A stretch of DNA of 63,964 nt, the filler included, from Reclinomonas americana ATCC 50394 (taxonomy: Eukaryota), in the NCBI GenBank assembly GCA_048213135.1. It is 17 parts of 17 records of this genome, joined end to end, with 100 filler letters (N's around TTAATTAATTAA, not from the genome) between each part and the next. Parts side by side here need not be neighbours in the genome. Positions count along the whole stretch, not along the records: positions 51,975 to 61,987 come from AFZH01023920.1; 16 more parts are not named here. One strand, given 5' to 3'. The notes below the pieces were generated by a model. That model saw only the letters and a program-made list of their open reading frames with translations. It searched no databases and was not told the DNA's origin. The position numbers were made by a program, and so were the translations under genes. This document shows positions 14,672-61,987 of this stretch, one piece after another (the stretch's first letter is position 1; each line of letters begins with the position of its first letter).

Positions 14672-14772
14672 GTCGTCCCGGGTGGAGCGAAGCGAAGACC
14701 CGGGACCCATGCCGGAGCGGTTCAGGCATGGGTCACGGATCAGCGCCGCTCACGCGGCTCGTCCGGGACGAC
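14672..14772. repeat. Rhizobiales-type intergenic palindromic repeat (REP/RIME/MITE-like)
   Basis: 101 bp bounded by GTCGTCCCGG..CCGGGACGAC; internal hairpins CCCGGG-..-CCCGGG and GACCCATGCC..GGCATGGGTC. Confidence 0.75.
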
Positions 14773-14852
14773 TTGGTTTCTAAATCAGGGGACGGGAACC
14801 TCGTCCCGTCTTCCGCATTCTTCCGCTGCTCGTCGCATTGCGGAGAAGCGTC

Positions 14853-28766: not shown

Positions 28767-29240
28767 GAGGGGAGGAAGAGGGAAAGGCGGTGATGAGGGG
28801 AAGGAGGGAAAGAGGAAAGAGGGAAAGAGAGGGATAGAGGGAAAGAGGGAAATGGGGAAGAGAGAAGAGGAAAGGAGGGAGAGAGGGAAGAGGAAAAGAG
28901 GGAGAGAGGGAAGAGAGGAAGAGAGGGAGATTGGGCGAGAGGGAAAGAGGGAAAGAGAGGGAAAGAGAGAAAGAGGAAAAGAGGGAAAGAGGAGAGCCAG
29001 AGAGGACGGCGAGAAACGTTGGAAGGAATAAATATGGCAAGTGCGGGAAAGAAAGAAAGAGGGCAGGGGAGGAGGGAAGAGAAAGAGGGCAAGAGAGAGA
29101 CACAGAGTGTGAAGACAGAGAGATAAGTGGGGAAGGGGGCGGGAGACGGAAGAGAGGGAGAGAGAGGAGCGAGAGAAGATGGAACGAGAGAAGACGGAAA
29201 GAATGAAGAGGAAATCAGGGAAGAGGGAAAGAGAAAGTGA
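28767..29240. repeat. Polypurine (G/A) low-complexity intronic tract
   Basis: Almost pure G/A on the + strand; similar tract at 29520-29870. Confidence 0.8.
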
Positions 29241-29249
29241 GAGAGTACA

Positions 29250-30640
29250 TTTTCTCGACATCGAACCTGCAAGTGACGGTACCGCTCGTCATTGGCGAGA
29301 CACCGCTGCTCCAGGACCAACTTGTCTGCCTCCAGAGCGTCCACGGCAGACCGTGTGCTCTGCACGGAAGAGGTTACAATCTCTGCTGCAAGACGACAAA
29401 AGCAGCAGCGTTCAGCATCCAACGCAACGCGACGTTCGTTTGTCAGTTGTGATTCCAGTGCCTGGCAGCGATCGCGAGTGGCCTCCAGTTCGTCGCGCTG
29501 TGAGTGGGGTCAGTGGCGAGGGAAGGAGAGAAAGGGGAAAGAGAAGAGGGAGGAGAGAGGGAAGAGAGAGGGAAGAGAAGGGGGATGAAAAGGGGGAAGA
29601 GCAAGGGCGAAGAGACGGGGGGAAGGTGAAGGGAGAAGACCACGAAGGAAGAGAAGGGGGAAGACAAAGGGGGAAGCGCAAGGGGGAAGAGCAAGGGGAA
29701 AGAGCAAGGGAAAGAGCAACGGAAAGAGAGGGGAGAAGAGCAACGGGGAAGAGCAAGGGGAAGGAGCAAGGGGAAGGAGCAAGGGAAAGAACAAGGTGAA
29801 AGAGCAAGGGGGGAGAGCAAGGGGCAAGAACAAGGGGGAGAGCAATGAGGAGGGGCGAAGGGACAGAGAGGAAGCAAGGCGCACGAAGAACTCAAGAGCA
29901 GGCAAACGCAACAAGGCGGATAACGGTGGCATCCGAGTGTGAGTCGTCGTGGCCGGCCTCTGCCAAGCCATGTGACCAAGTCAGCAACACGAAGGGTGAA
30001 AAAAACAACGCAGAGAGAGAGAGAGAGAGGAGTGAGTGAGAATGCACGTGTTTTGTGAATCTATGTATGTGTGTGCGAGTGTGTGTGCGAGCGCGTGTGT
30101 GAGAGAGACAACTCGATGACAAAATGCATGCATGCGAGTGTCACAATCACACAACAACGTGCATGTGTGACATAGTGAGAGTACATAAGAGAGAGACAAG
30201 CACTCAAAGACAACACGAGAGAGAGAATGAAAGTACTTATTTGTTCTCTCTTTCTCTCAAGATGCAGAGAGGAAAGAAGGCAAGAGACAGAGACAACAGA
30301 GATAAGAGCGAGAGAGAGAGAGAGCGAAGAAGAAGAAGACGAAGAAGACGAAGAACAGAACATGCAAGAGAGAGACAAGCACTCAAAGACAACACGAGCG
30401 AGAAAGAGAGAATGAAAGTACTTGCTTGTTCTCTCTTTCTCTCAACATGCAGAGAGAAGGTAAGAGAGAGAGAGAGAGAACGTGCGACAGAGACAAGCAC
30501 TCAGACGCACACGCGTGACTCACAAAAGAGAAAAACATGCATGTACTTGTTTGTTTCTTCTTCTCTCTATCTCTCTCTCACACACACTCTCTCTCGCTCA
30601 CCATCAATGCGACGTCGCTTCTCGCCAGCCGAAGGAAGCC
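29250..30640 (-). CDS. Unknown coiled-coil protein, scattered exons
   Basis: Exon RDELEATRDRCQALESQLTNERRVALDAERCCFCRLAAE..LEADKLVLEQR between pyrimidine-rich introns. Confidence 0.4.
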
Positions 30641-30711
30641 TTTCACTCTCCATCCACTCTCCTCCTAAACACAGTTTTCATCGATCCACCATTCATTTTC
30701 CATCCCTCTCT

Positions 30712-33048
30712 CTACATCGCCATCACCTCCCTCTCAAAGTGCCGGTGCCGCGCCACCGCCTCCATAAAAGCCTCCACCCACGCGTCGACCTCCGCGGCCT
30801 CGCCCAGCAGCAGACCCGGATCACTCACGTCCTCCTCCACCACCCCAATGCCGGCCTCGACGAGCAGGCGCCGCGAGGAGCCGAGCACCAGCAGCGTCTT
30901 GCAGTGCCGATACTGGTCTTGTACAAATTCTACCGCTTGTCCGCTCGACATGAGTGCGTCGACACCGGCGCCGCCGTCCGGCAGCACGCACGCGTCAAAG
31001 AGCACCGCCGGTGAGTTCTCCAGGGTGGCGGCCGCCTTGAGAGGTGAGGAGAGGCTGTCGGTGGTGCGTACGGTGCCGAGACGAGGTGCGACGATCACGG
31101 GAATGGCGCCCATGGTCAGCAGCGCCTCGTACAGGCGCACCACGGGCCTGCCGATGACTCCGTGCGCGACCAGCAGCGCAATGCGGCGAGTGCGAATGCC
31201 CACGGCTGCGGAGCTCGGTCGGTGCGCCATCAGCGACAGTGCCGGCGATGCCTCCACTTCCGGCCGCCTCGGCGCCACCACCGAGGCCGGCGGCAGCGGC
31301 GCAGGGTACTCCTCGAGGTCGAGGTCTGCGGCCAGTTGTGCGGCGAGCGACTCTGACACGTTGCGCAGCAGGGCCACCACGCGGGCGCGCACTGCCGCGA
31401 CCGTGACCTTGCTCAGCTCGAAGCGGAACGCCGCCGCAATGTGCGCCTGCTCCACCGCCGTCTGGCTGTCGTAAAAGAGGCGCGCCTGCGTGTAGTGGTC
31501 GGCAAACTTCTCCGGCTTGCCGCGCAGCTTGCGCGTGTCGTCGCTGCCACTGGCCGCATCGAGCGTGCGCGGGTACGTCATAAAGCCGGGACCGCCGCGA
31601 CTGCCGCCGGCCTGGAACGGGCAGCCGCCGGCCAGTGAGTTCGGCTCGTAGGCCACGCGCCCGCGGTTGAGGGTCTGGCGGTGGAAGCCGTCGCGGTTGT
31701 TGTTGTGCACTTGCGCCAGCGGTCGGTTGATGGGAATCTCGTGAAAGTTGGGGCCGCCGAGACGCGTCAGCTGTGTGTCGGTGTAGGAGAAGAGGCGACC
31801 GGTCAGCAGCGGGTCCTCGGTAAAGTCGAGACCGGGAATGATGTGGGCGGCACAAAAGGCCACCTGTTCGGTCTCGCCGAAAAAGGAGTCGGGGTTGCGG
31901 TTGAGCACGAGGCGGCCGACCGGGTGCACCGGCACCAGCTCCTCCGGCACCACCTTGGTGGCGTCGAGCACGTCAAAGCTGAAGGCGGCGGCCTGCTCCT
32001 CGGTGAACAGCTGCACGCCGAGTTCATACTCTGGAAACTCGCCAGCCTCAATGGCCTCCCACAAATCGCGCCGATGAAAGTCAGGATCGGCGCCGGCAAT
32101 CTTCAGTGCCTCGTTCCACACCAGCGAGTGCGTGCCGAGTTTCGGCGTCCAGTGGAACTTGACCAGCGTCGCCTCACCCTGCGCATTGACCAGGCGGAAG
32201 GTGTGCACGCCAAAGCCCTGCATCATGCGGTAGCTGCGCGGGATGGCCCGATCCGACATGATCCACATGAGCATGTGGGCCGACTCGGGACTCAGCGACA
32301 CAAAGTCCCAAAACGTGTCGTGCGCCGTCTGCGCCTGTGGCATGGCGTGATGCTGCTCCGGTTTGGCGGCGTGGATGACGTCGGGGAATTTGATGGCGTC
32401 CTGGATGAAGAAGACGGGAATGTTGTTGCCGACCAGATCCCACACGCCGTCCTCGGTGTAGAACTTGGTGGCGAAGCCGCGCACGTCGCGCACCGTGTCC
32501 GCCGAGCCACGCTCGCCAATCGCCGTCGAGAAGCGCACAAACACGGGCGTACGCTTGCCCTTGGCCACAAACGGGACGGCACGGGTGTAGCGCACCATCG
32601 AGTCGTCGTAGCACTCGAAAAAGCCATGCGCCGCCGAGCCACGCGCATGCACCACGCGCTCCGGAATGCGCTCATGATCAAAGTGCGTCAGCTTCTCGCG
32701 CACGATGAAATCCTCCAGTAGTCCCGGGCCACGCAGGCCGGCGGTGAGGGTGTTTTGATTGTCGGCCACCGGCACGCCCTGGTTGGTGGTGATGAAGCGG
32801 TTGGTGGGGTCCGCCCGCACGCTGTCCAGCGGTGCAATGGTGGCGGCGTTGAGACCGGGAGTGGCGGCACCGCGCGGACCCGTCTTGTCGGTCACCGACA
32901 CGGCCTCGGTGAGGGTGCTGGCGGTGGCGGTGCTGTCGCCGGTGGCGTGGGGGCCGACTTGGGGGGTGAGTGCGTCGTCGAGGCCGGCGTCGTGTTGTTT
33001 GAGCGGGTTGTGTGGGATGGAAGAGGCGAGGGCGTTGGTGGAGGCCAT
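30712..33048 (-). CDS. katE: Large-subunit (clade 2, HPII-type) catalase with C-terminal DJ-1-like domain, intronless
   Basis: [20 protein letters not shown] (catalytic His), [15 protein letters not shown] (proximal Tyr), C-terminal [20 protein letters not shown]; 778 aa from ATG 33048. Confidence 0.95.
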
Positions 33049-34127
33049 TTGGGAGCGCAGGGATGAGGGGAGGGGGGTGGCTGAAAGGGAAAGGGAGGGG
33101 TGAAAGGGGGAAAGGGGGAAGGGTGAGGGAAAAAAGAGGAAAAAAATAATGGTGTGCAAGGAAGGAGGGCCAGACAGGAATCTGTGGAGAGCGTGGCTTG
33201 ACACCACCTATGAAAGGAGATGATGCAACAACTGGGTTGGTGCAACAGAGAGGGCAGAGAGACGACAACACAGTGCAGCATTGCAGAGAGACGAGAAAGG
33301 AAAACGTGTCAGATAAACGCCGTGTATGAGGACGAGCGAATAATAGTGTGATCAAGTGCGAGTGAGGAGTCAACTGGGATGCGGCTGGAATCTGAGGAAG
33401 AAGAGAGAAACGTGACAACAAGAGAAGAAGAGCCTGAGCGAAGGGAGCATAATATGAAGAAGCGCGTGGAAGACGAGTGAATTGCAGCAAAGACGGAGTG
33501 CGTCGTGATGAGAACAAGCTGAGTGGTCGACAAGTTTCTGCAACACAGGCCGAGAGCGCGAGAGAGGCACAATGCCGACACCGGAAACAACAACAGCAGA
33601 CGAAGGACGGAGTGCAAGCAGGAAAATTCTCCACAAGTGAAAAAGAGTGAAAACAAGAGCAAGGAGACAACAAAAGAAGAGAGAGAGAGAGAGAGAAGAA
33701 AAAAAAAGGGACAGAGGGAGACTGAGATCCGTCACGCAACTTTTCTGCTCACGTGAAAACATGGTGACGAGGACGGAGGATGATGCTCTCTGCTCCGACA
33801 GTGGAATGCAACTCGGAGGAATCAATCATCGATCATCACATGCAGCGTGTGTGTGTGCTTGAGGATCGTGCAATGGATGGAAGGTAGGCTGTCGAGACGA
33901 CGTATGGGGGAAGGGGAGGAGGAGCGATCAACCATGTTGACAACTCGAGGGATTGTTTGTGCGAGTGGTGGGCATTTGTGTGTGTCAGTGTGCGAGAGGG
34001 GAACGCGCGCAACGCAAGAGAACAGTTCACAGGCGCAGCAACTGCACTCTACTCTTTGCATGCGGGCACGTACGTGGGAGGGACACAGAGCAACGACGGA
34101 AGGACAGACTTCAAAGCACTAAGTCGT

Positions 34128-35180
34128 TTACCACCCCGCCGCCCGCCTTCCAATCACCACCGCCTCCTCCAGCACAAAGCACCGCAGCACAACGTCGACA
34201 AGAACCCAGTCGCGATCATCCTCTTCTTCCTCGCCCAACATCTCGTTGACGGCCAGCACGGCCAGTCGCGCCGCCGCAATCTCATGCCCGGCAAGCCCAC
34301 GCGCCGTGGACCGCACTCGCACGCGCCTGTCACCCCCACCGGCACTCACCAAGTGCTGCCCATCGCGTGTGACGGCAATGGACCACACCTCGCCAGATTG
34401 CTCTTCGAATCGGCACACTTCTTTCCCCGTCGCCAGCCACCACATGCGCACTGCTATCTTGTCGACGTCGCCAACCCCGGTCACCACGCACTCACCGTCG
34501 CTGGTGACGGCGACCGATGGAACCCCCCACGTGTGCCCGTCCACCCGTCGCACTTGCTCGCCACTCGCCAGCGACCACACTCGCACAGTCTTGTCGAAGC
34601 CTCCACTCACCACGTACTGACCGTCGGGGGTCGTGGCGACCGATTGCACCCTCTCGGAGTGCCCCTGCAGTTGTCGTATTTCCTCTCCGCTGGCCAGCGC
34701 CCACACTCGCAGTGTCTTGTCGCGACCGCCGCTGACAGTGTGCTGGCCGTCGGCGGTGACGGCGACACACGACACGCCCCGCGTGTGCCCCTTCAATCGT
34801 CGCATTTCCTCGCCACTCGCCAGCGACCACACTCGCACCGTCTTGTCTCCACTGCCACTAACAATGTGGCGACTGTCGCCGGTGACGGCGACAGCATGCA
34901 CCCAGTCTGTGTGACCCACCAGCAGTCGCACTTCTTCCCCACTTGTCGCCAGTGACCACACGCGCACTGTTGCGTCTTGACCGCCACTGACAATGTGCTG
35001 GCCGTCGGCGGTGACGGCGAGCGATTCAACCCCTCCAGTGTGCCCCTCGAAGCAGCGCACTTGTGCTCCGCTGGCGAGGGACCACACTCGCACCGTCATG
35101 TCCTCGCTCCCACTCACCACGTGTCGGCCGTCGGGAGTGACAGCGACAGAGTTCACTGCGAGCGCGTGACCCTCGAAGGC
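34128..35180 (-). CDS. 7xWD40 protein with conserved ~55-aa C-terminal tail (last exon)
   Basis: Seven GH..VAVTxDG..SG..D.TVRVW repeats, then LAGHEIAAARLAVLAVNEML..DRDWVLVDVVLRCFVLEE..GW*; splice acceptor at 35181. Confidence 0.9.
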   Translation of the reverse strand, partial: AFEGHALAVNSVAVTPDGRHVVSGSEDMTVRVWSLASGAQVRCFEGHTGGVESLAVTADGQHIVSGGQDATVRVWSLATSGEEVRLLVGHTDWVHAVAVTGDSRHIVSGSGDKTVRVWSLASGEEMRRLKGHTRGVSCVAVTADGQHTVSGGRDKTLRVWALASGEEIRQLQGHSERVQSVATTPDGQYVVSGGFDKTVRVWSLASGEQVRRVDGHTWGVPSVAVTSDGECVVTGVGDVDKIAVRMWWLATGKEVCRFEEQSGEVWSIAVTRDGQHLVSAGGGDRRVRVRSTARGLAGHEIAAARLAVLAVNEMLGEEEEDDRDWVLVDVVLRCFVLEEAVVIGRRAAGW

Positions 35181-35458
35181 CTGCGAGGAGGAGGAATGAA
35201 CCACGCCATGCGCAATGAGGAGCAGGCGGGCACACACAGTTGGAGATCTCACGCATCCGAGACACGCACAGAGGGAGGGAGGGAGGGAGGGAGGGAGAGG
35301 GAGAGGGAGAGGGAGAGGGAGAGAGAGGAGGGAGAGAGAGAGGAGGAGGGANNNNNNNNNNNNNNNNNNNNNNNNNNNNNNNNNNNNNNNNNNNNTTAAT
35401 TAATTAANNNNNNNNNNNNNNNNNNNNNNNNNNNNNNNNNNNNNNNNNNNNACGTAGC

Positions 35459-35459
<1 letters not shown>

Positions 35460-35526
<67 letters not shown>

Positions 35527-35541
35527 CTCTCTCTCTCTCTC
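35460..35541. repeat. (CA)n/(CT)n microsatellite
   Basis: Seen directly at the contig edge. Confidence 0.95.
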
Positions 35542-35882
35542 AATCACTCACTCACTCGCTTGCTTGTGTGTGCAAGTAAGAAGCAGGAGAGGCCGTTGGA
35601 CTCGTCGCTTGTATGCATCGCTTACTTCTCTCTGTGCGTTGACCTCGCCCTCTCTCTCACACACACACATACTTGCACACACAAGCAAAGCAAGAGGCCA
35701 TTTGGACTCAATCGCTAGCTTCTGTGTTGATCTCACTCTCTCTCTCTCTCACACACACACATAGGCGACTAACATGCTCCCACGAAACCACACCTTTGTC
35801 GCCATGGCTCTCCTTTGTGGGAGAAGTGATTCATCCGACGGACAAGTACAACTGATCTCATGACGCTTAGTTCTTCACTGCT

Positions 35883-37200
35883 TCACCACCCCGCCGACCG
35901 CCTTTCAATCACCTCCGCCTCCTCCAGCACGAAGCACCGCAGCACGACATCGACGAGGATCCAGTCGCGATCATCATCTTCTTCTTCAGCAAGCAGCTCG
36001 TTGACGGCCAGCACGGCCAGTCGCGCCGCCACAATCTCATGCCCGGCAAGTCCACGCGGCGTGGACCACACACGCACGGTGGTGTCACGACCCCCGGCAC
36101 TCACAACGTGCTGACTGTCGGGCGTGATCGCAACAGAGTGCACCCAAAACGTGTGCCCTTCCATCCGTCGCACCTCCTCGCCCCCACTCGCCAGCGACCA
36201 CATACGCACTGTGTGGTCCACCGATCCACTGACAATGTACTGTCCATTGGTAGCGACGGCGACTGACAACACCCATGCCGTGTGCCCCTCTAACCGTTGC
36301 ACGACCTTTCCACCGCTCGCCAGCGACCACACTCGAATGGTGTTGTCGGCACTGCCACTCACCACTGTTACGTGCTTCGCACACTCCCCCCCTTACATGC
36401 CATTTATACCCCCCTTATATATGCTTTTCATAGCTTCTGCTCCTTGACCCTTTGTTCTTGACCCTCGGGTACGTGACCCTTAACCCGTTACCCTTGACCC
36501 TTGCAATGGGAGACCTCATATAAGGCAATCAAGGGGGGGAGTGTGCGAAGCCTGTGACACCACGTACTGACCATCAGGAGTGACGGCGACAGACTCCACC
36601 GAGTCCGCGTGCCCCTCCAGCCAGCGCACCAGCTTGCCACTCGCCAGGGACCACACTCGCAGAAAAAGGTCCTGGCTACCGCTGAACCACGTGATGCCCG
36701 TCGGGAGTGACGGCGACAGACGTCACCTCGTTCGTGTGCCCCACCAGTTGTCGCACCTGTTCTCCACTCGCCAGCGACCACACTCGCACAGTCTTGTCTC
36801 CACCTCCGCTCACAATGAGGCGACCATCGGGGGTGACGGCAACAGACCGCACCCGCCCAGTGTGGCCCTCCAGTCGTCGCACTTGCTCGCGAGTCGCAAA
36901 GGACCACACTCGCACAGTCTTGTCGTTACTCCCGCTCACTATGTGCTCACCATCGGGGGTGACGGCGACAGACCGCACCCATGCAGTGTGTCCGTGCAGG
37001 CGATTCACTTCCTTGCCGCTCGCCAGAGACCACACGCGCACCGTCATGTCGTCACTGGCACTCACCGCGTGCTGGCCGTCGGGAGTGACGGCGACAGACC
37101 ACACCCTTCCAGCGTGTCCCCTCAAGACCTGCAATGCGGGGAGGGTGTGAGAGAGGTGATTCTCCTATTGTTTCGCGCTGTGCTCTGCTGTCTGCGTCAG

Positions 37201-38320: not shown

Positions 38321-41300
38321 GAGAGTGTGTGGCCACGTGGGAGAGTGGGAATGTCAGATCTAGAAACCCTTGAGTGATCTGTGTGAGTTCGCAGAGAGTG
38401 TATGTACCACGCTTGCTTTTACCGCAGCGCTGCACTCAACACTCGACTATGTGACACAGGTCGATCAACTCGCAGCGCTTCAACATGGCCTTTGAGGTGG
38501 TGGAGGAGGCCGTGCGCCTGCGCTGTCGACGCGCACTGGCGCAGTTCAGTCGCGATCATGCCGACTTTGACGTGCGGGCATGGGTGCCAAGTTTCACGCC
38601 TGCCGGTATGAATGTGGTGGCGGTGAAGGCGTGGCGTGAACGACATGCTCCGCACCGATCTGGTCGAGTTGCGTTGTTCAAGGAGAAGCAGCTTGCGGTG
38701 TCGGCTTGGCGTGCTGCGTTTGACGCCGATCCGTCGTCCGACCCTTCGTGTGACGGGCTCGACACGACGGCGCTCACGTCAATCATGCTGTATGGTGGAT
38801 TTGTTCAAGATGGCGACCGCAAGCTGCTGATTGATGATGGCGATGAACGGAAGGCGGTGGAGGAGCTGCACTATATCAGGAACAAGCTTAGACACGATGA
38901 GCTGCCATTGACAGTTGTCACAGTGCAGCAGTACCTTGGTGACGGAGGTGTGTTTCTCTCCATTCTCTCACGATTGCAGCTGACGGTTAATAAGCGTGCT
39001 CGATTCAGTGCTCGCATCAGTGAGGCACGTCACGCTCGATTCATCGTGGACACATTCGAGGAGCGGCTTCATCGGCTGGCTGTGCGTGAGCTCTCGTTCT
39101 ATCAGCACGATGAGAGTGTGCGCAAGGACATGCAGATGTATGTGCCGCTGCTGTGTTCCCGGAAACGAGATGCCAGAAGAGACCTAGCGGATCTTTTGAA
39201 GGAAGTGGATGCTTTTCTCTCCGACGCTAACATCGCACACCGTGTGCTGGTGATATTTGGCAACAGCGGAGCTGGTAAGACCACCACCATGTCGGTGCTG
39301 GCTGAGCGAGCATGGCGACAGTGGCAGACGAGAGAGAGCAGACGAGTGCCAGTGCGTGCGCCTCTTGGTGCCCTGCGCAACGCTGATGAGCGATTGCTGG
39401 AGGAATCGCTGACGCGTCTGTCTCCGGAAATGAGCGCAAAGGGCGATGCCCGACGACTGAAAGAGGTACCACTGCTTTTGTTGCTAGATGGGTATGACGA
39501 GTTGTACCGTGGTGTGAATCTGTTTGTCAAGAACCAGCTGGATGTATGCCGCGATGTGAAGGTGATTATCACCTGCCGAGGTGATTATGCACTTACGGCA
39601 TTGGGTGGTGTGACACAGTATCGACGGTTGTTTGCGCCAGTTGACTCCAACGGTCAGCTACGTATGGAGCAGCTAATGGAGCGACACATTGCACCATTCG
39701 ACGAATCGCAAGTGAAGGAGTACTTTGGTCGGCTAGTTCAGTTGCATGTCGGTGAAGGTGACGACTGTGTTCCATGGACAACAGCCGACGAATACATGAT
39801 GTCTATGCGACAAGTACGTGGACTGATTGCACTTGTGTCCAATCCATTCCTGTTGACGGTGGCGGCTCGTGTGTTACCACAGTTGGTGGCGAGTGGTGTG
39901 CAACGACCGACTCGGTGTGATGTGTTTGAACGATTCATTCGACAGTGGATTGTAAGGGAGCAGGAGCGACAAGCACGAGTCGTCGGTGATACACGTGACC
40001 AACGCATCCCACGCGAGGGTGTATGTGTAGCTTTCTGTGAGGGACTGGCGCGGTTGATGCATGAGAGGAATGTGGTGCGTGTGTCCGTGGCAGAGAGTCT
40101 GTCTGGTGAGCGTGGAGAGGTGGACATTACTGAATTTGGCGGTGCGCCACTCGCCTCGTCACGAGTGGAAGAGGGACCGTTTGACAAGTTCCTCGGGCAC
40201 AAGAACCAACATGTGCGAGTGTGCTGTCCGATTGTGCGACGGTATGGGACGACGCAGTGGGGATTTGTGCATCTGTCGTTGCTGGAGCACTGTGTGGCAC
40301 GACATGTGTTTGCATGGGAGACGTGGGATGAGGAGAGGAGATTGACACTGCAAGATGTGCAGCAACATGTGCTCGCGGTGCGACTGCTGAATGATCGACC
40401 TTCGTTGGTGGAGCAGATGGCTGAGGTGGTGCGACGGTCTCCTGCGTTGCAGGTGAGACTGTGGGAGGCTATTGAGATGTCACGCGAGGTGGATGAGGAG
40501 CGAGTGGTGACGGCGGCAGCGAATGCGGCGACGGTGTTGTGTGTGGCACAAGTGTCGTTCAGTGGGCGCGATCTGTCGGGTGTGCGAGTGAGGGGTGCGG
40601 ATTTGAGGGATGCGGTGATGCACCGGACGGTGTGGAGGGGAGCGGATTTGCGGGGGGTGAATTTGTGCTCGGCGTATGCGAAGGAGGCAGATTTCACAGG
40701 AGCGGATGTGATGGATGTGAAGTGGCCGAGGAAGCCAATGGTGGGACACACTGGCTTGGTGTGGGCTGTCACTGTCACTCCTGATGGTCAGCACATTGTC
40801 AGCGGTGGTTATGATAGAACAGTAAGAGTGTGGTCCGTGATGAGTGGTGAGGAAGTGCAACGGTTGGAGAACCACGAGGACTGGGTGCTGTCGGTTGCGG
40901 TCACTCCAGACGGTCAGCACATCGTAAGTGGGAGCGAGGATAAAACCGTGCGCCTGTGGTCAGTGGCGAGTGGGGAAGAGGTACGACGACTGATGGGACA
41001 CACTGACGCTGTACGAACCGTAGTTGTGACTCGCGACGGCCAGCTCATTGTGAGTGGCAGTGGGGACAAGACAGTGCGAGTGTGGTCGGTGGCAAGTGGT
41101 GACGAGTTACGACGGTTGGACGGCCACACGGAGTGGGTGCGTTCCGTCACTGTTACTCCGAATGGGCAGCACATAGTTAGCGGCAGCGGTGACAAGACGG
41201 TTCGAATTTGGTCTCTGGCGAGTGGAGATGAGGTGCGACGATTTGAGGGACACACTAAACCAGTGTCATCTGTTGCCGTCACTCCTGATGGTCACTATAT

Positions 41301-42336
41301 TGTCAGTGGGAGTTGGGACAAGACTGTACGAGTGTGGTCCGTGACGAGTGGCGAAGAGGTGCGACGGTTAGAAGGTCACAGCGACTGGGTGCGTTCTGTT
41401 GCCATCACTCCCGATGGCCAGCACATTGTTAGTGGTAGTAGAGATAAAACTGTTCGAGTTTGGTCTCTCTCGACTGGAGAAGAAATGCGTCGGTTGAAGG
41501 GACACACTGACCGAGTGTCGTCCGTTGTCGTCATTCCCGACGGTCAGCACGTTGCAAGTGGGAGCTGGGATAAGTCGGTTCGAGTGTGGTCACTTGCGAG
41601 TGGAGAGGAAGTGCGGCGGTTGGAGGGGCATGCTGATGAGGTGCGGTCTGTTGCCATCACACCCGATGGTCAGAATGTGGTGAGCGGTAGTGTTGACACG
41701 ACAGTGCGAGTGTGGTCTGTGGCAAGCGGAGAAGAAGTGCGACGACTTGAAGGACATGTTGGCCCAGTGCAGTCCATCGCCGTCACTCCAGATGGTCAAC
41801 ACATCGTGAGCGGCAGTGGCGACGCGACTGTCCGAGTGTGGTCCTTGGCGAGTGGTGAGGAAGTGCGACGGCTGCAGGGACACACTGGCGCTGTGCGGCA
41901 CTTGGTCGTCACTCCCGATGGCCAGTATATCGTGAGCGGGAGTGGAGACAAAACTGTGCGGGTGTGGTCACTGGCGAATGGTGAAGAAGTTCAACGATTA
42001 GAAGGACACACCAATGTGGTGTCGTCCGTCGCAGTCACTCCTGATGGTCGACATATTGTAAGTGGCAGTGCTGACCAGACAGTGCGAGTGTGGTCTGTGG
42101 CGAGTGGTCAAGAGGTACGACATGGAAGTTTGGACGAACTCAGCCATGCATATGGCGGCCTGTCTCCGTCTGTGTCGGCGCATGCGATCGCGAGTTGCGC
42201 GAATTTGATTCCTATTCCGTTCGGAAGCGCTGTTCTCTTGAGTAGTCGTGCTGGGTTGCACGAGCGCATATTAGGTTCGTTCCTCCCGGAGTTTGGCGAC
42301 GCTGTTGACGTCCATCAGCGACACCGGTACAGGTGA
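37643..42336 (+). CDS. NLR-like STAND protein: ubiquitin-like - HEPN - NACHT - pentapeptide repeat - 11xWD40
   Basis: Phase-compatible exons 37643-37651, 37726-38003 and 38460-42336; RNKLRH at 38878-38895; Walker A GNSGAGKT at 39259; Walker B LLLLLDGYDE; IITCR; NPFLL; FVHLS; FSGRDLSGVRVRGADLRDA; 11 WD40 repeats of 126 bp at 40744-42120. Confidence 0.88.
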
Positions 42337-51974: not shown

Positions 51975-52034
<60 letters not shown>

Positions 52035-53420
52035 AGAGAAAGAGAGGAGGGACAGCACAACTCGGCATATGACTGTGCAGGCATGAGTATGAGAGGAAGC
52101 AAGGCAGAAAGAGAACAGGTCACTTGAGAGAGAGAGAGAGGAGGGACACCACAACTCGGCATATGACTGTGCGGGTATGAGCATGAGAGGAAGCAAGGCA
52201 GAGGAGAACAGGTCACTGGAGAGAGAGGAGGGACAGCGCATGAGTGAGTGCGTAACTGCACTCCTCAGGGCAGGAGTGACTGAGGGAGAAGGAGTAAAAG
52301 GGAGCGGGCAAGAGACTGAGAGACAAGAGGACTTGGTGTGTGACATGCACAAAACTCTCGACGGCGGAACCGCGACACCGTTCGCCTGGGCCAACCTCAG
52401 CGCCTCCTCGAGCCCCCGCTGCTTCGTCTCCGCCTGCTTCAACGCCGCCGCGTACTTGCGCTTCGCCGCCTCGGCTTCACGCAGATGAGCAGTCAGCTCT
52501 CGCACAGCACGATTGGCCGCCGACGCCTCGGCCTTCCATCGCTCCATCATTGCCGTCTGCTGCTGCATGGCCGTGGCATGCGCCACGCGCAACTGACTCG
52601 CCCGTGCCTGCGCCTCCTCGCGCACACGCTGCACCTCCTCACGCGCACGCTGCACCTCGGCGGGATCCACCACCGCCACCGGCACCGGCACCGGCACCGG
52701 CATCGCCTCCCGTGCAGCCAGCTTGCGTTCCAGCTCAGCCACCCGTGCCTCGGCCTCCGCGGAAGCACGAGCCGTCGCCTTGGCCGCCGCAGCCTCCAAC
52801 TTGACCTTTTGCGCCTGCATCGCGGCCGTGTGCGTCTCGTTTGCCTTTGCCACTGCGCGCTCCACCGCTCGCTCGTCGGCCAGCTCCACGCGCTTCCGCA
52901 GCTGTGCGACGAGCATCTGGTGTGCCTGACTGTCGTTGCGCACCTGCTGCAGCTCGCGTTGGAGGGTGTCGCGTTCGGCGCGAAGGGCGGCCACCTCGCG
53001 TTGCAGTGGTTCGACAGTGCGCAGTTCCTGGAGCGGGTGGTGTGTGAGGGGAGAGAGAGAGAGGAGGGGAGAGACAGTGGAGGGGGTGTGTGTGCTCACT
53101 TGCCGCGCGGCCTCCAGTTCTGCACTCGTCTGTTGTTGCATGTCGAGAATGGTGTTCGAGTGCAGCAAGATCTTCTTGACGCTGGTGACTTGTCGGCGGA
53201 TTCGATCGGCTTGTTCTTTGCTGAGAGCGCCGTCGGTGGTGGGGGGAGAGAGGGGGGGAAGGGGGTGGGGGTGGAGGTGGGGGGAGGGGGAGGGGGAGGG
53301 GAGGTCTCCATGGTGCAGGAATTGGGCGAAGGCAATTGCGGGACATGACTTCGACGGTGTGCCTGCTGGCTCACAAGGCAGGGACAGCGTGTTTCCGAGC
53401 AGAGGTACGTGCTTTATGTG
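49273..53420 (-). CDS. Large unknown protein with an N-terminal coiled coil, multi-exon, probably spanning the gap at ~51900
   Basis: Coiled-coil exons at 52350-53230; acidic/low-complexity and helical exons at 49273-51630 on the same strand; same minisatellite on both sides of the gap; ends approximate. Confidence 0.5.
51629..52240. repeat. ~90-bp intronic minisatellite (CACAACTCGGCATAYGACTGTGC..AGGAAGCAAGGCAG..GGTCACT) with (GA)n
   Basis: Units at ~51629, 51717, 52056 and 52150. Confidence 0.85.
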
Positions 53421-53554
53421 CACTGTGCCATGGTGCGCGTGTGAGTGGAAACATCAATGATGAAGATGCAACGTCGAAAGTCATCTCAGAGTTCGCGGAT
53501 CCGCTAACGGAGAAGAGAGTTGAATGGTGAGCCGGTTCATTCTCCTTCACAATA

Positions 53555-56500
53555 TTATGCCGGCCTCTCGTGCAGTCGCCGACAAACTTCCAGCCACTCC
53601 ACAGTATTCACGGTGCTTGGATCCTCCTCACCAAGTACCGCTCGCCGACCATCCACACACTCCACCAGCAGTGCCTCTGCCTCGGACCATCGTTGCTGTT
53701 TAATGAGCAGAAGGCCGAAGTTGTACATCGTACGCAACATATCTTCGTGTTTGTTGCCCAACACTTCTCGCTCTCCCCTCAAGCACTTACGATACAAATC
53801 AGCAGCTTCCGCCAGTGATTCTGGAGTGTCTTGTTGTGCGAGAGCACCAGCAAGATTGTTCATCGACATAAGAGTGTCTGGATGTCGATCCCCCAGCGAC
53901 GCTCGCTTCAACTGCAAGCAATCTCGGTTCAGTTGAATTACTTCCTCTAGACGACTATCATCTCGGATACATGCGGCAAAATTGCTCATAGACGTCAACG
54001 TGTCTGGATGATCAGCACCAAGAACTAAACACCGCATCTCCCAACACCATTGATAAACAATCTCAGCATTGGCAGTTTTTTTGTGATCATCGTAGAACCA
54101 CGCCTGCAAATTCAGCGTCAACAGCGAGTCTGGATGACTCTCTCCCAACGTCGCACACTGCCGCCCATGACACTGCATCAGAAGCGGTAAGATGCCTGAA
54201 CAGTGACCAAACCACATCAAGCAGCGAAATGCGTCAATCCTATCCAGCACAGTCATCTCGCCACTGTCATCCCTCTCCCACTCGTCACACAGAAGCCACG
54301 CCTGCTGCCACGCTGCGTTTCGCTTATCCAACTGACGAAGCATCTCAAATAACCATGCACGACACTTGACCACCACAATACAAAGCAGTCGTCGCACTGA
54401 ACTCGTCCGATTATCCCCATCTCCATGCTCTCCACACTCTGTCATACGACGTACCAGTGACATGGCCACTGACGTGTTGAATCCAGCAGAAGGCAGTTCT
54501 CTACTAACCCACAACGCAGCAATCCACTCCACCGCCCCACACTGCACCAGAAGCCCATTCACACCCACGGCATCTCTCGCCCACATGCCGTCATCCTCGC
54601 CCAACCGTCGCCACACAGCGTGAAGCACGCCGAGCAAGTCGCAAGACACCAACAGCACAATATAGTTGTCATTCCAGTCAACGCCACTCAGCATAGAACA
54701 CGCGAGTCGCACCAGCAGTCGCTGCATCCGTGACACGACATCCCCCCACCGTCCCACAATCCACCCAGCAATCTCATCGTGCACTCGATACTCCACCACC
54801 ATATCGCTCTCCCTCACATGCTCACCACAAAGCACACGAGCCACACTGTCCATGCTGCCACTGGCACCCACCGTCACCAGATTCGATATACACAGACCCT
54901 CCAGCACATCCTCCACCTTGTCTTCACCACCACCAGCCACCAACTCATCACGCCGAGCACGCACTCGCTGCTCATCTTCCACACCCATCTCGTCAAACTG
55001 CAGTTTCTCACCCACTACCTCGGGCACACGCCGTCGCCTCTCCTGTGCCAGCTCATGCAATCGCAGTCGACGCACACACCATCCCAACTCCACCAATCGA
55101 CCAGCCGCCTCCTCATCTTGATCAACAGCAGCCTCCTCATCTTCATCACCACCAACCACAGCCACCGTAAAATCGGGAATCACTCGCAACACACCCATCG
55201 CCACTCGTGCAAGTGCCACTGTCACTGGCAAGCCGAGTTCCTTGCATGCCGTAATTAGAACCAACAGTCGACGCGCAGCTGGTGTCTGCGACATCACATT
55301 GCGTTCCAGCAGCCGAGACAGTGCATCGCCACCGATTCCACTCAGCACCTCCTCCAGCCGCGCCCCTACCAGCTGTGCTGGCGATTGCGACAGCAACCAG
55401 CTGCAAGACGAAGAAGAGAGAAAAGAGTGAGTCTTCTCATGCGCACCACTCCCCCACGCACTCAAAGCACTCACCCAACACACGCACTCACTCGCAGTGC
55501 ACTTTTCTCCTCCTGTCCACTCTCCAGCGCCTCCACAATCCGTCGTCGCACATCTCCCGACACCTTGTGAAGGAGTCGCTCCTCCACCAGCTGCACAATG
55601 TCCTCGTTCTCCACGCTCTCCACTCGCACACACTCCACCTCCGCCTCGTGCATCATCGAGTCACGAATCTCATCCGCCACTTGTCCATATCGACTCGTCA
55701 CCACCACAATAGGTGCCACAATTCCGCCTGCACAAAGACACACAATGATACACAGCAAGTCAGGAACCAACATCAAAACAAGAATGACGATTCTCAATCT
55801 CGTGACACAACGCACCCTCATCAGCACATTGAATAACATTCCGCACTTGCTCCGCCGATCCCACATTGTCCAACACAATCACTCCACTCGATGCATGCAT
55901 CAGCTGGCGCAGGAGACGACGTGCTGGCTCCACCTCGCCACTCGCCAGCAGCGCATCCACCTTACCGGCCATTCTTCGTCCCTCCTCTTCTTCCACTCGC
56001 ATCTGTGCCGTAACAAAGGCACGCAGACACTCGCCCACAGCACTCTCCGCCTGTAGCATGGGGCAAGGAGAGAGGGGGAGAGTCAGAATGCCAACAGAAT
56101 GATGAAGCATCATGAAAGACAACATGCTTGCTCCTCTGCACACCTTCACATGCTCCCTCGCATCACCTACATGGCCACGCATTTCCACCGACACGGCAGA
56201 TCCCTTCCATCGACGAGTCGCCAACAACTCGGTCACCAGCAGCTCGGCCAGGAATGACTTGCCAGTGCCACCATCACCCGTTAGCACCACCATGATCGGA
56301 TTATGTGCTGTGCAAGATATCATCACCACCAACAGAAAACACGATAAGGACACATGAATGTAGAGAAGGAAGCAGGTGGAGAGTGAGAAGGAACAACCAA
56401 CCTTCCACAGCATCCACAATGCGCGTGGCGAGCGAGGACGCCAGTGCACGTCGACTCGGGAAGCGGAATGTGGTCACTGGATTGACGGTGCGGGCGATGA

Positions 56501-57790
56501 GTGGTGTCTTGGGTGGGCGATTGCTGTCTGGTGCTGTGTCGCACAATGAGAGTGAGTGAGCAAATGAGCACAGCAATGCACACTCCATGCAGGCACATCA
56601 TGGAACACACCTGCAGCTAAGGGAGAAGAAGGAGAGATGCTTATTGTGGTCAGTTGCTGCCGCATGAGCTCCACTTCGACGCGTATCTGATCAATCACAA
56701 GCAAGTGAGAAACAGAAAGCCGCCTGCAAGCGACCATCGCCCTGAAGTAGTCCCACTCAACTTGCTCCATGTGTGCCAGCAGCAACGACTGGTCTGTTTG
56801 ACTCAACGCACCTGCATTCGACAGCATCAGCTACCACATTCAATCAAATCATCCACACACATGCACCAGCCATCTCTCCCTCCACTCACCATCACGAGCC
56901 TCGTTCAGCTGCATCACCAATTCCTCCTCCACATCCCTGCCAACCTGCAGTCGCCGCACAAGCTTATGCAACTCGCCCTCTCCTCCTCCATCACCGAGCA
57001 GGGGCACAAAGAGTCCACGAGCTCGTGCGGGACTCGCCAGCTCAAACACCTCCCTCATTCGCGCAATCGCATCGCGCTGTGCACAAAGAGAATGAGTGAC
57101 ACAAGCACACAGAGATGATGATCACACTCCTCCTCCTTCCATCTCATTCACACACACTCACCACATCGCCAGCTGGAATCAGGCGATCCGGCTCTTCTCT
57201 CGGGTGCTCTCGATGACCCGCCAGCAGCAAAATCGAGCAGCACAGCATCGCATCAATCGAACTGCAGTCGTGCAGCTGGCCTCGCTGGCGCCACTCGCGC
57301 ACCGTCTGCTGTTCCTTCTCGCTCAACTGGACACACATGTCCACTCCGTCTGGCATGGAGCTGTATGTCGGGAAAGCACAAAGAATGAGAGGAATCTGGT
57401 GAGTGAGGGAATGCGTGTGACAAGAAAGAGAGGGCATTCATCGAGATAGAATGCCGAGTCGTGTGGTGAGACAATGAAGAGTGTGAGAATGGGGAGAAAG
57501 GGATGACCAGCGCGTCACCAGCTGCAACTTTCTGTTCCCTTCTCTCTTCCTCTCTCATTCACAACTTCAATCTGCATCATGCCATTGTGTGCTTCTGCAT
57601 CCTCCCCCACATACTCACCGCACATCACGCTCACTCGGTGCCTTGCACCACTCGGCAACATGATTCACACCGGGATACGAATCGAGAAACGCCGGCAGCA
57701 CTTGCTCGAGTTTCGATTGCAGAGCGCGGGTGCATGGACGAGAGAATGCCATGGCAAGGCGCATCATGCATTCCTCATCTGCAACGTCGT
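53555..57790 (-). CDS. NLR-like STAND protein: inactive HEPN-like domain - NB-ARC - TPR (multi-exon; 5' end may extend to 58013)
   Basis: Walker A VVLTGDGGTGKS, Walker B VIVLDNV, sensor VVVTSR; kinesin-light-chain-type TPRs (LGADHPDTLTSMSN, LGDRHPDTLMSMNNLA); N-terminal exons homologous to the 38460-39030 domain. Confidence 0.85.
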
Positions 57791-58383
57791 GATGACTATG
57801 TGAGAGAGAGAGGAACGAATCACACACACAGTGTGAGAATGACGATGACGATGCATCTGACAACACACAATGAGAGAGACACGCAACTCCCGCGGCACTC
57901 CACTCCCACACGCCATGATGGTGCGCCACAACATGCGCTGTGGCACGTACTGCAGCTGTCAACGATCGATATCGCGCAGTGATTGAAATTTCGAATTCTC
58001 TCATCATGATCATGTATGGCCATGGTCACGCTGCGTGCACTACATGCGACACGTTATAGTTCATCTGTCAGTCTCAGTTAGAGAGAAGTGCGTGAGCCCG
58101 ATTGAAGTGATCGCACCAGAAAGCCGATCGAGCAAATACTGTACATTGACGACATTACAGTACTGTTGGATCTTATATTGAGTGATTCGTCCCCCACACC
58201 GTCCCCCACCGTACGCAGTGTGTCATATTGAGACCAATTATCGCAATTTTATTTTTTTAATCCCTACTTGGAGAGCGCAGTGGAGTATTGCAGCAGCTAG
58301 AGGTGCTATTTGCATTCAGTACAGTGTAGTTCACGTCGTCGTCCCTCACATCGCTGCAATGCACAGTTCGTCGTGTAAACACA

Positions 58384-60838
58384 ATGGCTGCCGCTGCTCC
58401 GTCTGCAAGTCGACAGGGCGGTGGTGGGATTCATATCAGAGGAGTTACGGTTCACCAAACGATGTTCGCTGCAAAGGTGCAGCGTCCAATCGGGCAGGGA
58501 ACCGTGTTCTCGCTGGATTCTTTCAATCTGCGATTGTGTGCCATTTCTGGGAATGTGAGGACGGTGGACGGACTGATTCGAGAACTGTTCCACGATGATG
58601 TAGTCTTCGAATTCGAAGGAGGGCTTGGCATCAAATTCATCGTTCAAGTTGCGCACGTGCACGATCACGACGGCGAACGCGCCATCGACCGAGACGAGCT
58701 TTCCAATTGTCGTTTCCGAATCGTCGCGGAGTTGGACGATTTTGGAGAAGTTGCAGACCATTACAACCGGCTTTTGCAATCCTCCTCAGAGGGGCGCCCA
58801 GAGACCACCGAACACTACATTTTCCTTGGTAAGTTTTCTGTTCCGTTCACCTATTTGAGCGCGACGACTTTGTATAGTATTCATGCGTCATGATCATTTT
58901 GCAGTGTGCGCTGTGCCCATCTTAGGGGCTGTAAGTCCCGGTGATTACCAGTCGCCGCAACCAGACCCAGACCACGAGGGTGACGGGGAGGGTTTGTCAG
59001 CGGAGGCTTCGAAGCAAGTGTCCGCCGAGGACATCAAGATTGAGCCCGCGGCCGTGTCCTCGCGATCGTTCCATGGTGAACGCAAGGCAGCTCGCGCGAC
59101 TGTTTTCGCGATCTTCAACTTCAAAGGCGGTGTGGGCAAAACGACTACTGCGTACCACCTCGCATGGAAGGTATGTCGACGCCGTGCCGTATGAACTTAG
59201 TGTTCGGATCCGGACACGTGCACGCCGCGCTGCGTGCTCCTCGCCTCCCCGTGACACTCACCGTGCCGATGTGCGTGCAACGCAGTTGGCCCAAGAGACC
59301 TGCAGGCCAGTTGTAATGTTCGACTTGGACCCACAATTCAATCTGACGCACCTTTGTCTTGGCGACCGATTTGACTACCAATCACTGTACGATCCTCCGG
59401 TTGTCAGAGCCGACGTCGAAGCCGATGAAGGAGAAGATGCCGCTGCTGTTCCGCTGACAATTGCTGACGCGGTTCAGCCACTTCTCACCCTCGAGTACGG
59501 GAAGATGCAAGCGATGGCTTGTCTCGAAGTTCGTCAGTTCGAGAATCCAGAGGTGAGCAAAAGCTGTTTCTCGACACATGTTGCAAAAGCAGTCGAACGC
59601 ATATGCTTATGTGCACAATCACTAGGGCGTGGGCCGTGATCAACGTCGACTTCTCCGACTGGCTGCTGGCAGCCTGAACATTGCCACGTTTGACCACCAT
59701 CTTACTGCTGCGATACACACACCAGGTGGTGGCTTGACACAACAACAGAACTATCCCGGCGGATTGGATTTTGTGCGTCTGCATGCGCACTCTCGCTAAT
59801 CTTGGCGTGACACGTGAGCTTGACCGATTTCGAATTCTGTTCTGCAGATCATCCAGCGCACAGCGCTTCAGCAGCGCGCTCCATTTGTCGTGCTTGACCT
59901 CAGTCCGAGTTTGTCCGGACTCAACGAAATCGCCATGATGCTGAGCGATGTCATTGTCTTCCCTTGCAACGTGGACTATTTCTCTGGGCTTGGGCTAAGA
60001 AATCTGAATCAGGTTAGCACACTGTGCTTAGGCCTTGCGCGTGATGGTCTCCACAACGGTTTTCGTCTTTACGACCTTCGAATTCTGCGCAGTTCTTCGC
60101 CGAAGCTTTTGCTCGTCGTATTGAAATCATGAGACGCGGCCCTCCGCCTCCTGCCCGCCTCCAGTTCCCCTTCCCGAAGACTCTGCCGCCACAGTTTGGC
60201 GGCGTCTTCATTTCTAACTTTAAGACTGCAGGCGCGAGTCGATTCGGTATGTTGTTGCAATATTCTTCGAGACAGCAGTGCTGTCAAGGTTTCCGTTCTT
60301 ACCGCAGCTGTGATTGCACAACAGTGTCTCCTGTTGGGTCGCCTATTGTGCAAGACCACATTCAGAAGATGATCAAGAACGCTCAAAAGTGGTTCGATCA
60401 CGTGTCGCAACACGCCGAGGGCCTGCGAGCAAGTTTTGTCGTTTTGCAAAACCAGGCAATTGACAAGATGAGAGAAGTCGGTCTCTTAGACCAAGTTGTC
60501 GGCCGCCGTGGATTTAGATCCCTCGGTCATGAGCACAGTAGCATTCTTGGTGCACTTCAGGTGAGAACTCTTGCTGATCGTCGTAAGTAGCATCGTGGAT
60601 ATTTACTCACAAAGAACTCTTCAACTGCTGTGAGCAGAACTTCTCGAACATCATGCTGATGGCGCTCAGTCAACTGCGTCCAATGTTCGAACTCAACGAT
60701 GGAAGTCGGATCCGTGACGCTGGTTCCCTGGTGCGCTACAGCGAGCGAAATGCGAGGTCAATCTTGCAGCACGCCGAGGTTGTCAACCAAATGTTCATCC
60801 ACATGGTACGGACGCTGTTGGAGACATTTGCTGCCTGA
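58384..60838 (+). CDS. ParA/Soj-family ATPase with an N-terminal extension, 7 spliceosomal introns
   Basis: FNFKGGVGKTT (deviant Walker A), DLDPQFNLT, VLDLSPSLSGLN, PCNVDYFS, FPFP..PQFGG, QNFSNI..RPMFEL; GT..AG introns near 58829, 59171, 59552, 59776, 60012, 60247 and 60561. Confidence 0.88.
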
Positions 60839-61353
60839 TTCAAAGGATCGCGCATTCGGTCTTGTCTGTCTCTTTGAAGTCGTACTTTGCAGCGCTTTTT
60901 TCTTTTCTGCTTCTCTCCTCTCTGATGGCTCATCGTCACTCTTTATTTGCTACGTAAACCCACTGGATCTACAGTCCTAAATTTGCGCGCTGGCAGTCGA
61001 CTGCAGCTGCCTGGCGCGCATGCAAACGGCGCATCGGTGCAGCCAGCGGCATCATCATGTGGTGGTGGCGGACAGTGCTGCGTACGGAAGGGCGAGATCA
61101 CGATACCCCCTGCATAACGTTAGGAAGACCCAGCGATCGTGCACGGCACATCGAATTCGGGAAAAGGCCATAAGTCAGGCAAACAAAGCAAAGGCGGGTC
61201 CGGATCCGTGAAGCAGGCAAAGCAAAAGCAGTGGAGGCGTCGTCATTTGGTGGCGAGGTTGAAACAAAAGAGAGCTTGTCATGTTGCTTGTGGGGCTCAT
61301 ATCGGTGATGGCTTGAGCAGGTGGTAGATACAGTAAGCAAGTTCATTCATCAG

Positions 61354-61987
61354 TCACAACACCACACCGACCTCGCTCGCACACCGCCGACATTCTGCCA
61401 GCCACTCGACTGCCTCCTCTGTCTTCGAATCCAATTCACCAAGCACCGTCCGCCTTCCATCCACACACTCCACCAGCAGTGCCAATGCTTCGGACCACTG
61501 TTGCTGCTTCATAAACAAGTCTCCGTAGTTGTATATAGTCCGCAACGTTTCCTCATGCTTGTCGCCCAGTATTTCGCGTCGTCCGTCCAAACACTCCTGA
61601 AACAAATCAGCGGCTTCTACCAGTGCTGTTGGCGTGTTCTGTTGCTTGAGAGAAAACGCAAGGTTGTTCATCGACATGAGAGTACTCGGGTGTCGATCTC
61701 CGAGTGCGGCCAGCTCCAACCGCAAGCAGTCTCGCTCGAGTCGAATCCTCTCCTCCAGGCGACTGTCGTCCAGGATGCAAATAGCAACATTGCCCATGGT
61801 CGCCAACGATTCTGGATGCTCAGCTCCAAGCACCAGTCGTCGCATCTCCCAGCACCGTCGCCAAATTGACTCAGAATCCGCAAATCGTACTCGATCATAG
61901 TGATGCCGCGCCTGGACATACAACGACGTCAACGAATCTGGATGACACGCACCCAACATTGTGCACTGCCGCTCATGACACTGCAGC
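61354..61987 (-). CDS. TPR C-terminus of a paralog of the 53555 NB-ARC-TPR gene (partial)
   Basis: Colinear with 53555-54180: CWEMR.LVLGA.HP, DDSRLEE, LGDRHP.TLMSMNNLA, WSEA.ALLVECVDGRR. Confidence 0.92.

Follow-up and report, generated by a model that had tools for sequence, protein, structure and literature searches.

The window analysed in this study is a stretch of 63,964 nucleotides from Reclinomonas americana ATCC 50394, in which contigs are strung together by N linkers, and the genes of main interest lie on one contig of 10,013 bp within it (positions 51975-61987). On this contig, a ParA-type ATPase gene occupies positions 58384-60838 of the plus strand and is placed between two members of a STAND-TPR family. 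To its left, on the minus strand, is an intact gene for a STAND-like NTPase with TPR repeats (53555-57916), for which the splice model gives 10 exons and 1140 amino acids (TPR_10, E 2.5e-24; AAA_16, E 4e-4). The start codon of this gene at 57916 was fixed by a small first exon that is common to its paralogues. The two genes are head-to-head, and the spacer between their ATGs (57917-58383) is 467 bp long. To the right lie a dispersed host repeat (61133-61330), which is truncated at its 5' end as judged from other copies that reach further 5', and the 3' end of a second family member, corresponding to its TPR part, on the minus strand (61354-61987; TPR_12, E 1.8e-18; 62% identity to the first). 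Because only the 3' ~630 bp of this second paralogue are present before the contig ends, its STAND domain is assumed from the family. Its stop codon is 515 bp from that of the ParA gene. The first-pass annotation had described a head-to-head NB-ARC-TPR gene and a tail-to-tail TPR paralogue, and both placements were borne out. Its name for the left neighbour holds in part: the TPR repeats are clear and the NTPase is STAND-like, but Pfam NB-ARC matched it only at E 0.22. A coiled-coil-like gene of no known family (51975-53450, minus strand) is found downstream of the first STAND-TPR gene.

ParA ATPases are prokaryotic segregation motors. The ParA gene of this contig is divided into 8 exons by 7 GT-AG introns of 73-115 nt, and the predicted spliced product has 626 amino acids without an internal stop. 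Exon 1 (58384-58828) encodes an N-terminal region of 148 residues, presumably joined to the ATPase, as an open frame that ends at a GTAAGT donor. Exon 2 (58905-59170) contains an acidic linker and the ParA Walker A motif (N-F-KGGVGKT; Pfam AAA_31, E 3e-5), and in exon 3 (59286-59552) the sensor motif, DLDPQ, is accompanied by an acidic insert that follows strand 2. Exon 4 (59626-59772), with a G-x-L motif and a helix typical of the family, is collinear with the bacterial homologues. Exon 5 (59848-60012) carries Walker B (FVVLD), LSPSL and PCNVDYFS (AAA_31, E 1.2e-6), and exon 6 (60093-60246) has the family motif PFP..P.FGG together with the N that remains of a degenerate NKxD position. The C-terminal helices are encoded by exon 7 (60325-60560), and exon 8 (60638-60838) ends the gene with the family motif NF....RPMFEL and the stop codon. 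The motifs are all in order, and the earlier description of a ParA motif set split by seven GT-AG introns is thereby confirmed.

The splicing was evaluated with a profile built from 24 database relatives, none of which was a sequence of the window. Residues 213-597 of the spliced product matched this profile as a single domain with 174.7 bits, covering profile positions 2-333 of 358. The unspliced frames scored 14, 36 and 78 bits, and 60 shuffles of the exon order scored 108.5 bits at most. Relative to the bacterial homologues, intron 4 is an exact insertion of 25 residues. Introns 2-5 and 7 are therefore backed by homology, that is, by the single-domain alignment of the spliced product and by the insertion at intron 4. 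Intron 6, the 78-nt intron in front of exon 7, is in frame and stop-free, and it could be retained (171 bits when retained, 175 when spliced). Intron 1 and exon 1 stand outside the homology and are called only from a consensus donor and a frame that stays open for 148 codons; a shorter model with six introns could start at an in-frame ATG at 58883. As far as the sequence can tell, the gene model is real and well supported. We also observed that introns 4 (59773-59847) and 5 (60013-60092) have an 11-base word in common near their acceptors, which is the sole shared word of 9 bases or more among the 21 intron pairs. This word could be due to chance or be a trace of intron gain.

The residues of the ATPase were compared with the known motifs. 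Walker A reads FNFKGGVGKTT from residue 219; its core KGGVGKT (222-228) fits the ParA-clade pattern KGGxGK[ST], and both Walker A lysines are intact. The DxD sensor, located where strand 2 ends, is DLD (250-252, in DLDPQ at 250). In Walker B (PFVVLD, with FVVLD at 388) the final Asp is present, and the first Asp of DhhhhD is replaced by Pro, at a position that is variable in some bacterial relatives too. Of the [NT]KxD motif, which is degenerate, N alone is retained (ISNF, 470-473, aligned with IQNY or IQQR of the relatives). Further ParA motifs follow in order, namely PFP..PPQFGG and then NFSNI...RPMFEL (561-579). The marks of the PriB1/ConB1 assemblages are present as N220 before Walker A, V225, and Q254 two residues after DxD, and the K is not replaced by R; these marks do not discriminate by themselves, because Soj has them too. 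Residues 431-626 are net basic (24 K+R against 15 D+E), and the remaining regions are acidic.

When the family profile was compared with solved sequences, the best match was DIP2308 (PDB 3PG5), at E 8.5e-52 over positions 3-352, and Soj followed at 2e-25. 3PG5 is an uncharacterised structural-genomics entry of bacterial origin, whereas the gene studied here is eukaryotic; no functional paper on DIP2308 was found in our literature search, in which three papers merely quoted the PDB code. A relative, P0133, was modelled with a pLDDT of 90 and showed the Soj fold (Z 27-28). Against 3PG5 this model gave Z 26.4 and an rmsd of 2.8 over 276 residues, a score tied with those of the Soj and McdA entries. 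The PADLOC family PDC-M28B had also been a candidate for the ParA gene and was rejected, since the match was confined to the P-loop.

The region encoded by exon 1 gave no match in Pfam, PADLOC or PHROG, its best NCBIfam hit was only at E 0.15, and no Atlas match was obtained. A single-sequence fold reached pLDDT 36. The exon is present as a single copy in the genome. With 14 K+R against 21 D+E, the N-terminal region is acidic overall, and a usual mitochondrial presequence differs from such a region. It was probably gained newly after the transfer discussed below.

We then consider to which family the ATPase belongs. In pairwise comparisons of the spliced domain, the nearest relatives scored 80-111 bits, Soj 39-40, MinD 13 and Mrp 11. 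Soj/ParA, MinD and Mrp/Nbp35 resemble the protein in their SIMIBI fold and their deviant Walker A, but their branches are separate, at 11-40 bits. Sorted by genomic context, the median scores were 83 bits for HEPN-coupled relatives, 80 for stand-alone relatives and 62 for Schlafen-coupled relatives. The best identity to any relative was 28-30%. In a tree of 66 rows, for which the family was thinned by taking only every other HEPN and Schlafen locus and keeping the remaining loci in full, the query fell within the 57-row family clade with a support of 100/99, and Soj, MinD and Mrp lay apart from it. In the same tree, the MinD of the host, which is also split by introns, paired with Escherichia coli MinD, likewise at 100/99. 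With a 36-row set, the AU test rejected the query as a MinD (p 0.005) and as a Mrp (p 0.032). Its grouping with Soj was also rejected in this set (p 0.035); in a different set of 31 rows, where the Soj grouping amounts to a position basal to the whole family, it was not rejected (p 0.073). The trees held no ArsA/Get3 row, and the family profile matches ArsA/Get3 only at the P-loop. These results uphold the earlier view of the gene as a bacterial ParA instead of a eukaryotic MinD or Mrp, and they place it in an effector-coupled ParA family. The idea of an old horizontal acquisition followed by intron gain is likewise in agreement with the low identity and the seven introns.

The position of the query within the family is less certain. 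Its branch is long (1.2-1.9). In three trees it joined the Logan proteins P0124 and P0125 with supports of 97, 99/98 and 98/95, but this grouping was absent from the 66-row tree and lost its star support once the outgroup was removed, as when long branches meet. The three proteins all have F where the family has a near-invariant W. By pairwise rank, the query is 403rd of 498 for P0124 and 442nd of 497 for P0125. The grouping may represent a eukaryotic clade or long-branch attraction. When P0124 and P0125 were left outside, placement of the query with the HEPN clade (p 0.013), with one prophage pair (p 0.013) and with Schlafen (p 0.003) was rejected in every case, and no donor can therefore be named. 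A word-index search with exon 5 gave no eukaryotic relative at E 0.001 or below among 163 candidates. Two profile searches each listed at least 120 matches, and those with names were bacterial. In a full HMMER scan, 20 matches to exons 4-5 were obtained (best E 5e-8), of which 2 are probably spurious repeats. Scans of metagenome and viral contigs with P0124 and P0125 found matches of only 25-36%. Placement within the family aside, we read the gene from its sequence as a eukaryotic member of the recently described conflict-type ParA branch.

The genomic context of the relatives was analyzed in three sets of loci, which were chosen by pattern and rank, so that the shares given here are not population frequencies. 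The GTDB sample consisted of the best 80 of 520 confirmed loci, 76 of which had a full ORF. Within this sample, the downstream neighbour was HEPN_RiboL-PSP in 40 of 74 cases, mostly in overlapping frames, and RelA_SpoT in 3 of 74; the upstream neighbour was Schlafen AlbA_2 and/or HATPase_c_4 in 19 of 73. None of the 147 neighbours in these best 80 of 520 loci was a ParB, and a further check out to 5 kb carries little weight, since its model was made from two sequences. Purpose-built partner models were used for the viral and metagenome loci. Among 80 viral-contig loci, 53 had none of the HEPN, Schlafen or RelA partners, 18 had HEPN and 9 lay at a contig edge; among the metagenome loci, of which 77 of 80 were usable, 32 had no partner, 12 had HEPN and 33 were at an edge. 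The first-pass annotation had likened the gene to orphan ParAs that lack a ParB. The lack of an adjacent ParB stands, but the relatives are not plain orphans, since they go with HEPN, Schlafen/HATPase or RelA partners or travel as stand-alone prophage cargo.

Several individual loci are of note. Stand-alone members of the family occur in prophages of an E. coli record (L016, 4680-5756) and of a second locus (L014, 4683-5759). The E. coli gene stands directly after a repressor-like gene, which is a usual site for cargo. In another prophage, a complete ParA + HEPN pair lies behind tail genes (L050, 4953-6808). P0128 is a natural Schlafen-HATPase-ParA fusion of 731 amino acids, and a 652-aa ParA fusion overlaps a PRTase gene (L111, 4986-7602).

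A HEPN-ParA/Soj dyad has been predicted to act as a toxin-antitoxin pair in which the ATPase is the antitoxin (Anantharaman et al. 2013, PMC3710099). The relatives of our query form such a dyad, in overlapping frames, as described in the text of that paper for the MAE_18760-family HEPN, but the query itself has no adjacent HEPN gene. PF18735 (HEPN) had no match in the host assembly, where an intron-split gene could escape such a search. An orphan ParA that destabilises a plasmid is cited in PMC8544851. A recent preprint describes a branch of "ParA-effector systems" with HEPN, Schlafen with HATPase, and RelA partners, and, within its ConB1 assemblage, standalone transposon/prophage (STP) lineages (Li, Burroughs and Aravind, bioRxiv 10.64898/2026.10.19.760177). 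As far as its text goes, the agreement with our data lies in the partner set and the stand-alone prophage copies of the relatives and in the N, V and DxDxQ marks of the query; the full-length collinearity at 174.7 bits and the 100/99 clade place the query in the same sequence family. The query differs in being eukaryotic, in having seven introns and a probable N-terminal extension of 210 amino acids, and in having no coupled effector gene beside it, the flanks being the STAND-TPR gene, the repeat and the TPR end. The same preprint describes Euk1 and Euk2, two stand-alone eukaryotic ParA clades from separate transfers, reported chiefly from photosynthetic eukaryotes and certain metazoans, and it proposes a defence against selfish elements for the stand-alone and eukaryotic members. 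Our query is likewise eukaryotic, stand-alone and of the ConB1 type, a likeness to the description of these clades and not to their sequences; in contrast, introns, an N-terminal domain and NLR-like neighbours, which the query has, are not mentioned for them in the preprint text. According to that text, the immune role of the bacterial ParA-effector branch is itself a computational prediction. Since the ParA contig has no ParB, the gene does not belong to a ParABS partition system; it is also not a member of MinD or Mrp, nor a complete ParA-effector system. In our literature search, outside which lay subscription journals and preprint supplements, a ParA gene with introns next to STAND genes was not the subject of any paper.

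The assembly measures 108 Mb in 16,441 pieces. Exon-wise searches of it, in which four pieces of exons, one relative from bacteria and two Pfam families served as queries and the best candidates only were scored, gave no second ParA copy. Megabase bacterial contigs in the assembly carry intronless Soj and Mrp. In the window itself, three small bacterial contigs (8070-15678; solute-binding protein, UxuA and topoisomerase IB) are contamination. The host genome also contains first exons of genes that we presume, from the motif, to be Nbp35/Cfd1-like, and an intron-split nuclear MinD (contig C867, ~29,100-30,750; L010), presumably of the mitochondrial type known from some protists.

The STAND-TPR family to which the two neighbours belong is large and young. 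The TPR region of the first gene gave at least 216 matches in the genome, with 150 of 526 candidates scored, and by eye at least 67 close paralogues were counted (at least 50% identity over most of the query). In about 200 kb from seven contigs the copies repeat every 4.7-5 kb, and close to the 5' ends their DNA is about 76-90% alike. Among 14 same-strand spacers, nine were of 510-720 bp, one was mostly N, and four contained a co-duplicated block. The block holds ARM-repeat fragments and fragments that are partly glycosyltransferase-61-like (weak Pfam matches, E about 1e-3), and its presence in 4 of 13 readable spacers means that passengers are common in STAND-TPR arrays. In the spacers of contigs C341 and C340, this block was copied along with STAND genes on at least four occasions, and some of its copies look broken. 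No ParA was found among the spacers of the ~200 kb. Elsewhere (C195, 125,700-126,600), a caspase-domain exon (Peptidase_C14, E 5e-7) substitutes for the usual head of the same STAND-TPR body.

The ParA block (57934-61132; 3.2 kb) had no match in the fetched arrays, and those parts of it that were searched genome-wide are unique. At its left junction, the similarity to the paralogues stops about 17 bp above the STAND ATG; the spacer is unique from about 57934 and takes the place of the family's usual upstream region. The upstream block common to 14 of 15 compared paralogues is absent, by eye, from the copy that adjoins ParA. Either the ParA spacer drives this copy, or the copy has been left without its promoter. 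The right edge of the block is formed by the repeat at 61133-61330, which has at least 42 matches of 80-97% identity (40 of 343 candidates scored) and is possibly a SINE; copies of ~200 bp or more have (GTT)n-like 3' tails and often lie just downstream of STAND 3' ends. Because the STAND copies are so alike (~76-90%) and ParA is far from its relatives, the juxtaposition of ParA and STAND is presumably much younger than the ParA gene.

A HEPN (DZIP3-like) head on the neighbouring STAND protein was considered as a candidate and found no support: its single exons gave no Pfam HEPN match in an exon-wise search, which is weak, and the R-x4-6-H motif was present in none of 22 STAND copies, of which one exon was checked. 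PF18738 had no match anywhere, controls included.

From these data we propose the following account, to which we give a probability of roughly 0.55 as a whole. The ParA gene is likely, on sequence grounds, to be an old bacterial transfer. The donor branch would be that of ParA/Soj ATPases which travel alone in prophages or are coupled to effectors of the HEPN, Schlafen or RelA kind, and the gene would have arrived without its effector or lost the effector later. It would then have gained introns and probably its new N-terminal region, and one intact copy was kept. ParA dimers form in an ATP-dependent manner, bind nucleic acid via C-terminal helices and release it on hydrolysis (bioRxiv 10.64898/2026.10.19.760177, text). 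By analogy with this biochemistry, the protein probably works like a ParA switch: it would bind ATP and dimerise through the first Walker A lysine, the ATP dimer would hold nucleic acid through the basic C-terminal part, and hydrolysis would lead to release. The target may be the invading DNA of a virus or mobile element, as suggested by the donor branch, and the protein might act on it without an effector, by coating it or by stopping its replication or segregation. Such solitary action against invading DNA is the tentative part of our proposal, and we put it at somewhat under an even chance. The placement in the STAND-TPR array is most likely the result of a recent rearrangement in a young, unstable array, and it would be dispensable for the function of ParA. 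The long branch, the basal position at p 0.073 in the 31-row set and the Pro in place of the first Walker B Asp count against this account. If it holds, an intron-bearing conflict-type ParA of a eukaryotic lineage rich in NLR-like receptors would be an independent case, and since it is single-copy and effector-free, it would permit a direct test of a ParA acting alone on foreign DNA.

The first-pass annotation had seen in the gene a guardee, decoy or co-regulated part of an immune cluster. A functional tie of this kind, in which a bidirectional promoter is shared and ParA serves as switch, guardee or restraining partner of the STAND-TPR protein, would rebuild from two genes the bacterial ParA-STAND fusions or ParA-HEPN pairs. 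It agrees with the unique spacer of 467 bp and with a STAND copy that remains intact without the upstream block of its paralogues; the TPR region of this copy also matches the TPR model of the FxSxx system (E 1e-22). Bacterial ParA-STAND-TPR fusions exist, including inactive MinD/ParA domains on actinobacterial AP-ATPases (PMC7159879). However, the linkage occurs once among at least 67 close paralogues, other spacers hold unrelated ARM-repeat and glycosyltransferase-61-like passengers, and the STAND head gave no HEPN signal. Moreover, the preprint text handles ParA-STAND fusions (TIR-ParA systems) apart from the ParA-effector branch (bioRxiv 10.64898/2026.10.19.760177), and here ParA and STAND are separate genes on opposite strands. 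We therefore think such a tie unlikely, and the role proposed earlier is not sustained. Slightly more doubtful is a specific form of it, in which an immune ParA, once the restrainer or trigger of a HEPN RNase, was recruited to a protist NLR-like locus as a promoter-sharing, nucleotide-gated STAND partner or sensor of foreign DNA. If this were true, a ParA-STAND coupling that has been described to date only in the form of bacterial fusions would have been rebuilt from two separately acquired parts, and a shared spacer driving both genes would show how receptor arrays acquire new partners.

The gene might also have been reused for housekeeping, its product being a ParA-like ATPase that positions or segregates an organelle genome or a cargo, with exon 1 as an adaptor. 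Its intact ParA motifs, the Soj-like fold of a relative (Z 27-28), and its single-copy and old nature, in contrast to the rapid expansion of immune families in the host genome, are in line with such a role, and the host keeps a MinD as well. Since the donor branch is effector-coupled without an adjacent ParB, and the acidic N-terminal region is unlike a usual mitochondrial presequence, we consider this improbable, though less so than the tie to the receptor cluster. Membership of an older eukaryotic clade (Euk1/Euk2), acquired once in ancient times and kept patchily, would mean that the transfer is not peculiar to this lineage, and it is compatible with the mechanism of our preferred account. 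We regard it as a serious possibility that falls short of even odds: the grouping with P0124 and P0125 in three trees and their common F speak for it, whereas the loss of that grouping in the 66-row tree and without the outgroup, and the low pairwise ranks, speak against it. That the gene is a contaminant, a chimera or a pseudogene is very improbable. The fragmented assembly does contain bacterial contigs, the ParA contig is only 10 kb, and the junctions are abrupt at both ends of the ParA block; but the seven introns restore the frame and are of the same size class as those of the neighbour, the gene has host genes to its left and right and a host repeat to its right, the 626 codons contain no stop or frameshift, and searches of the assembly found no intronless copy of the family among the co-assembled bacteria.

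Two other features of the window were recorded. A long catalase (Catalase + Catalase_C; 30715-33207, minus strand) is encoded in one frame of 831 codons on a contig with host-type microsatellites, and it may be another bacterial import. Long frames of WD40 repeats, with at least 11 repeats, lie at 38455-42333 (plus strand) and 34131-36392, and they are possibly the ends of other NLR-like genes.
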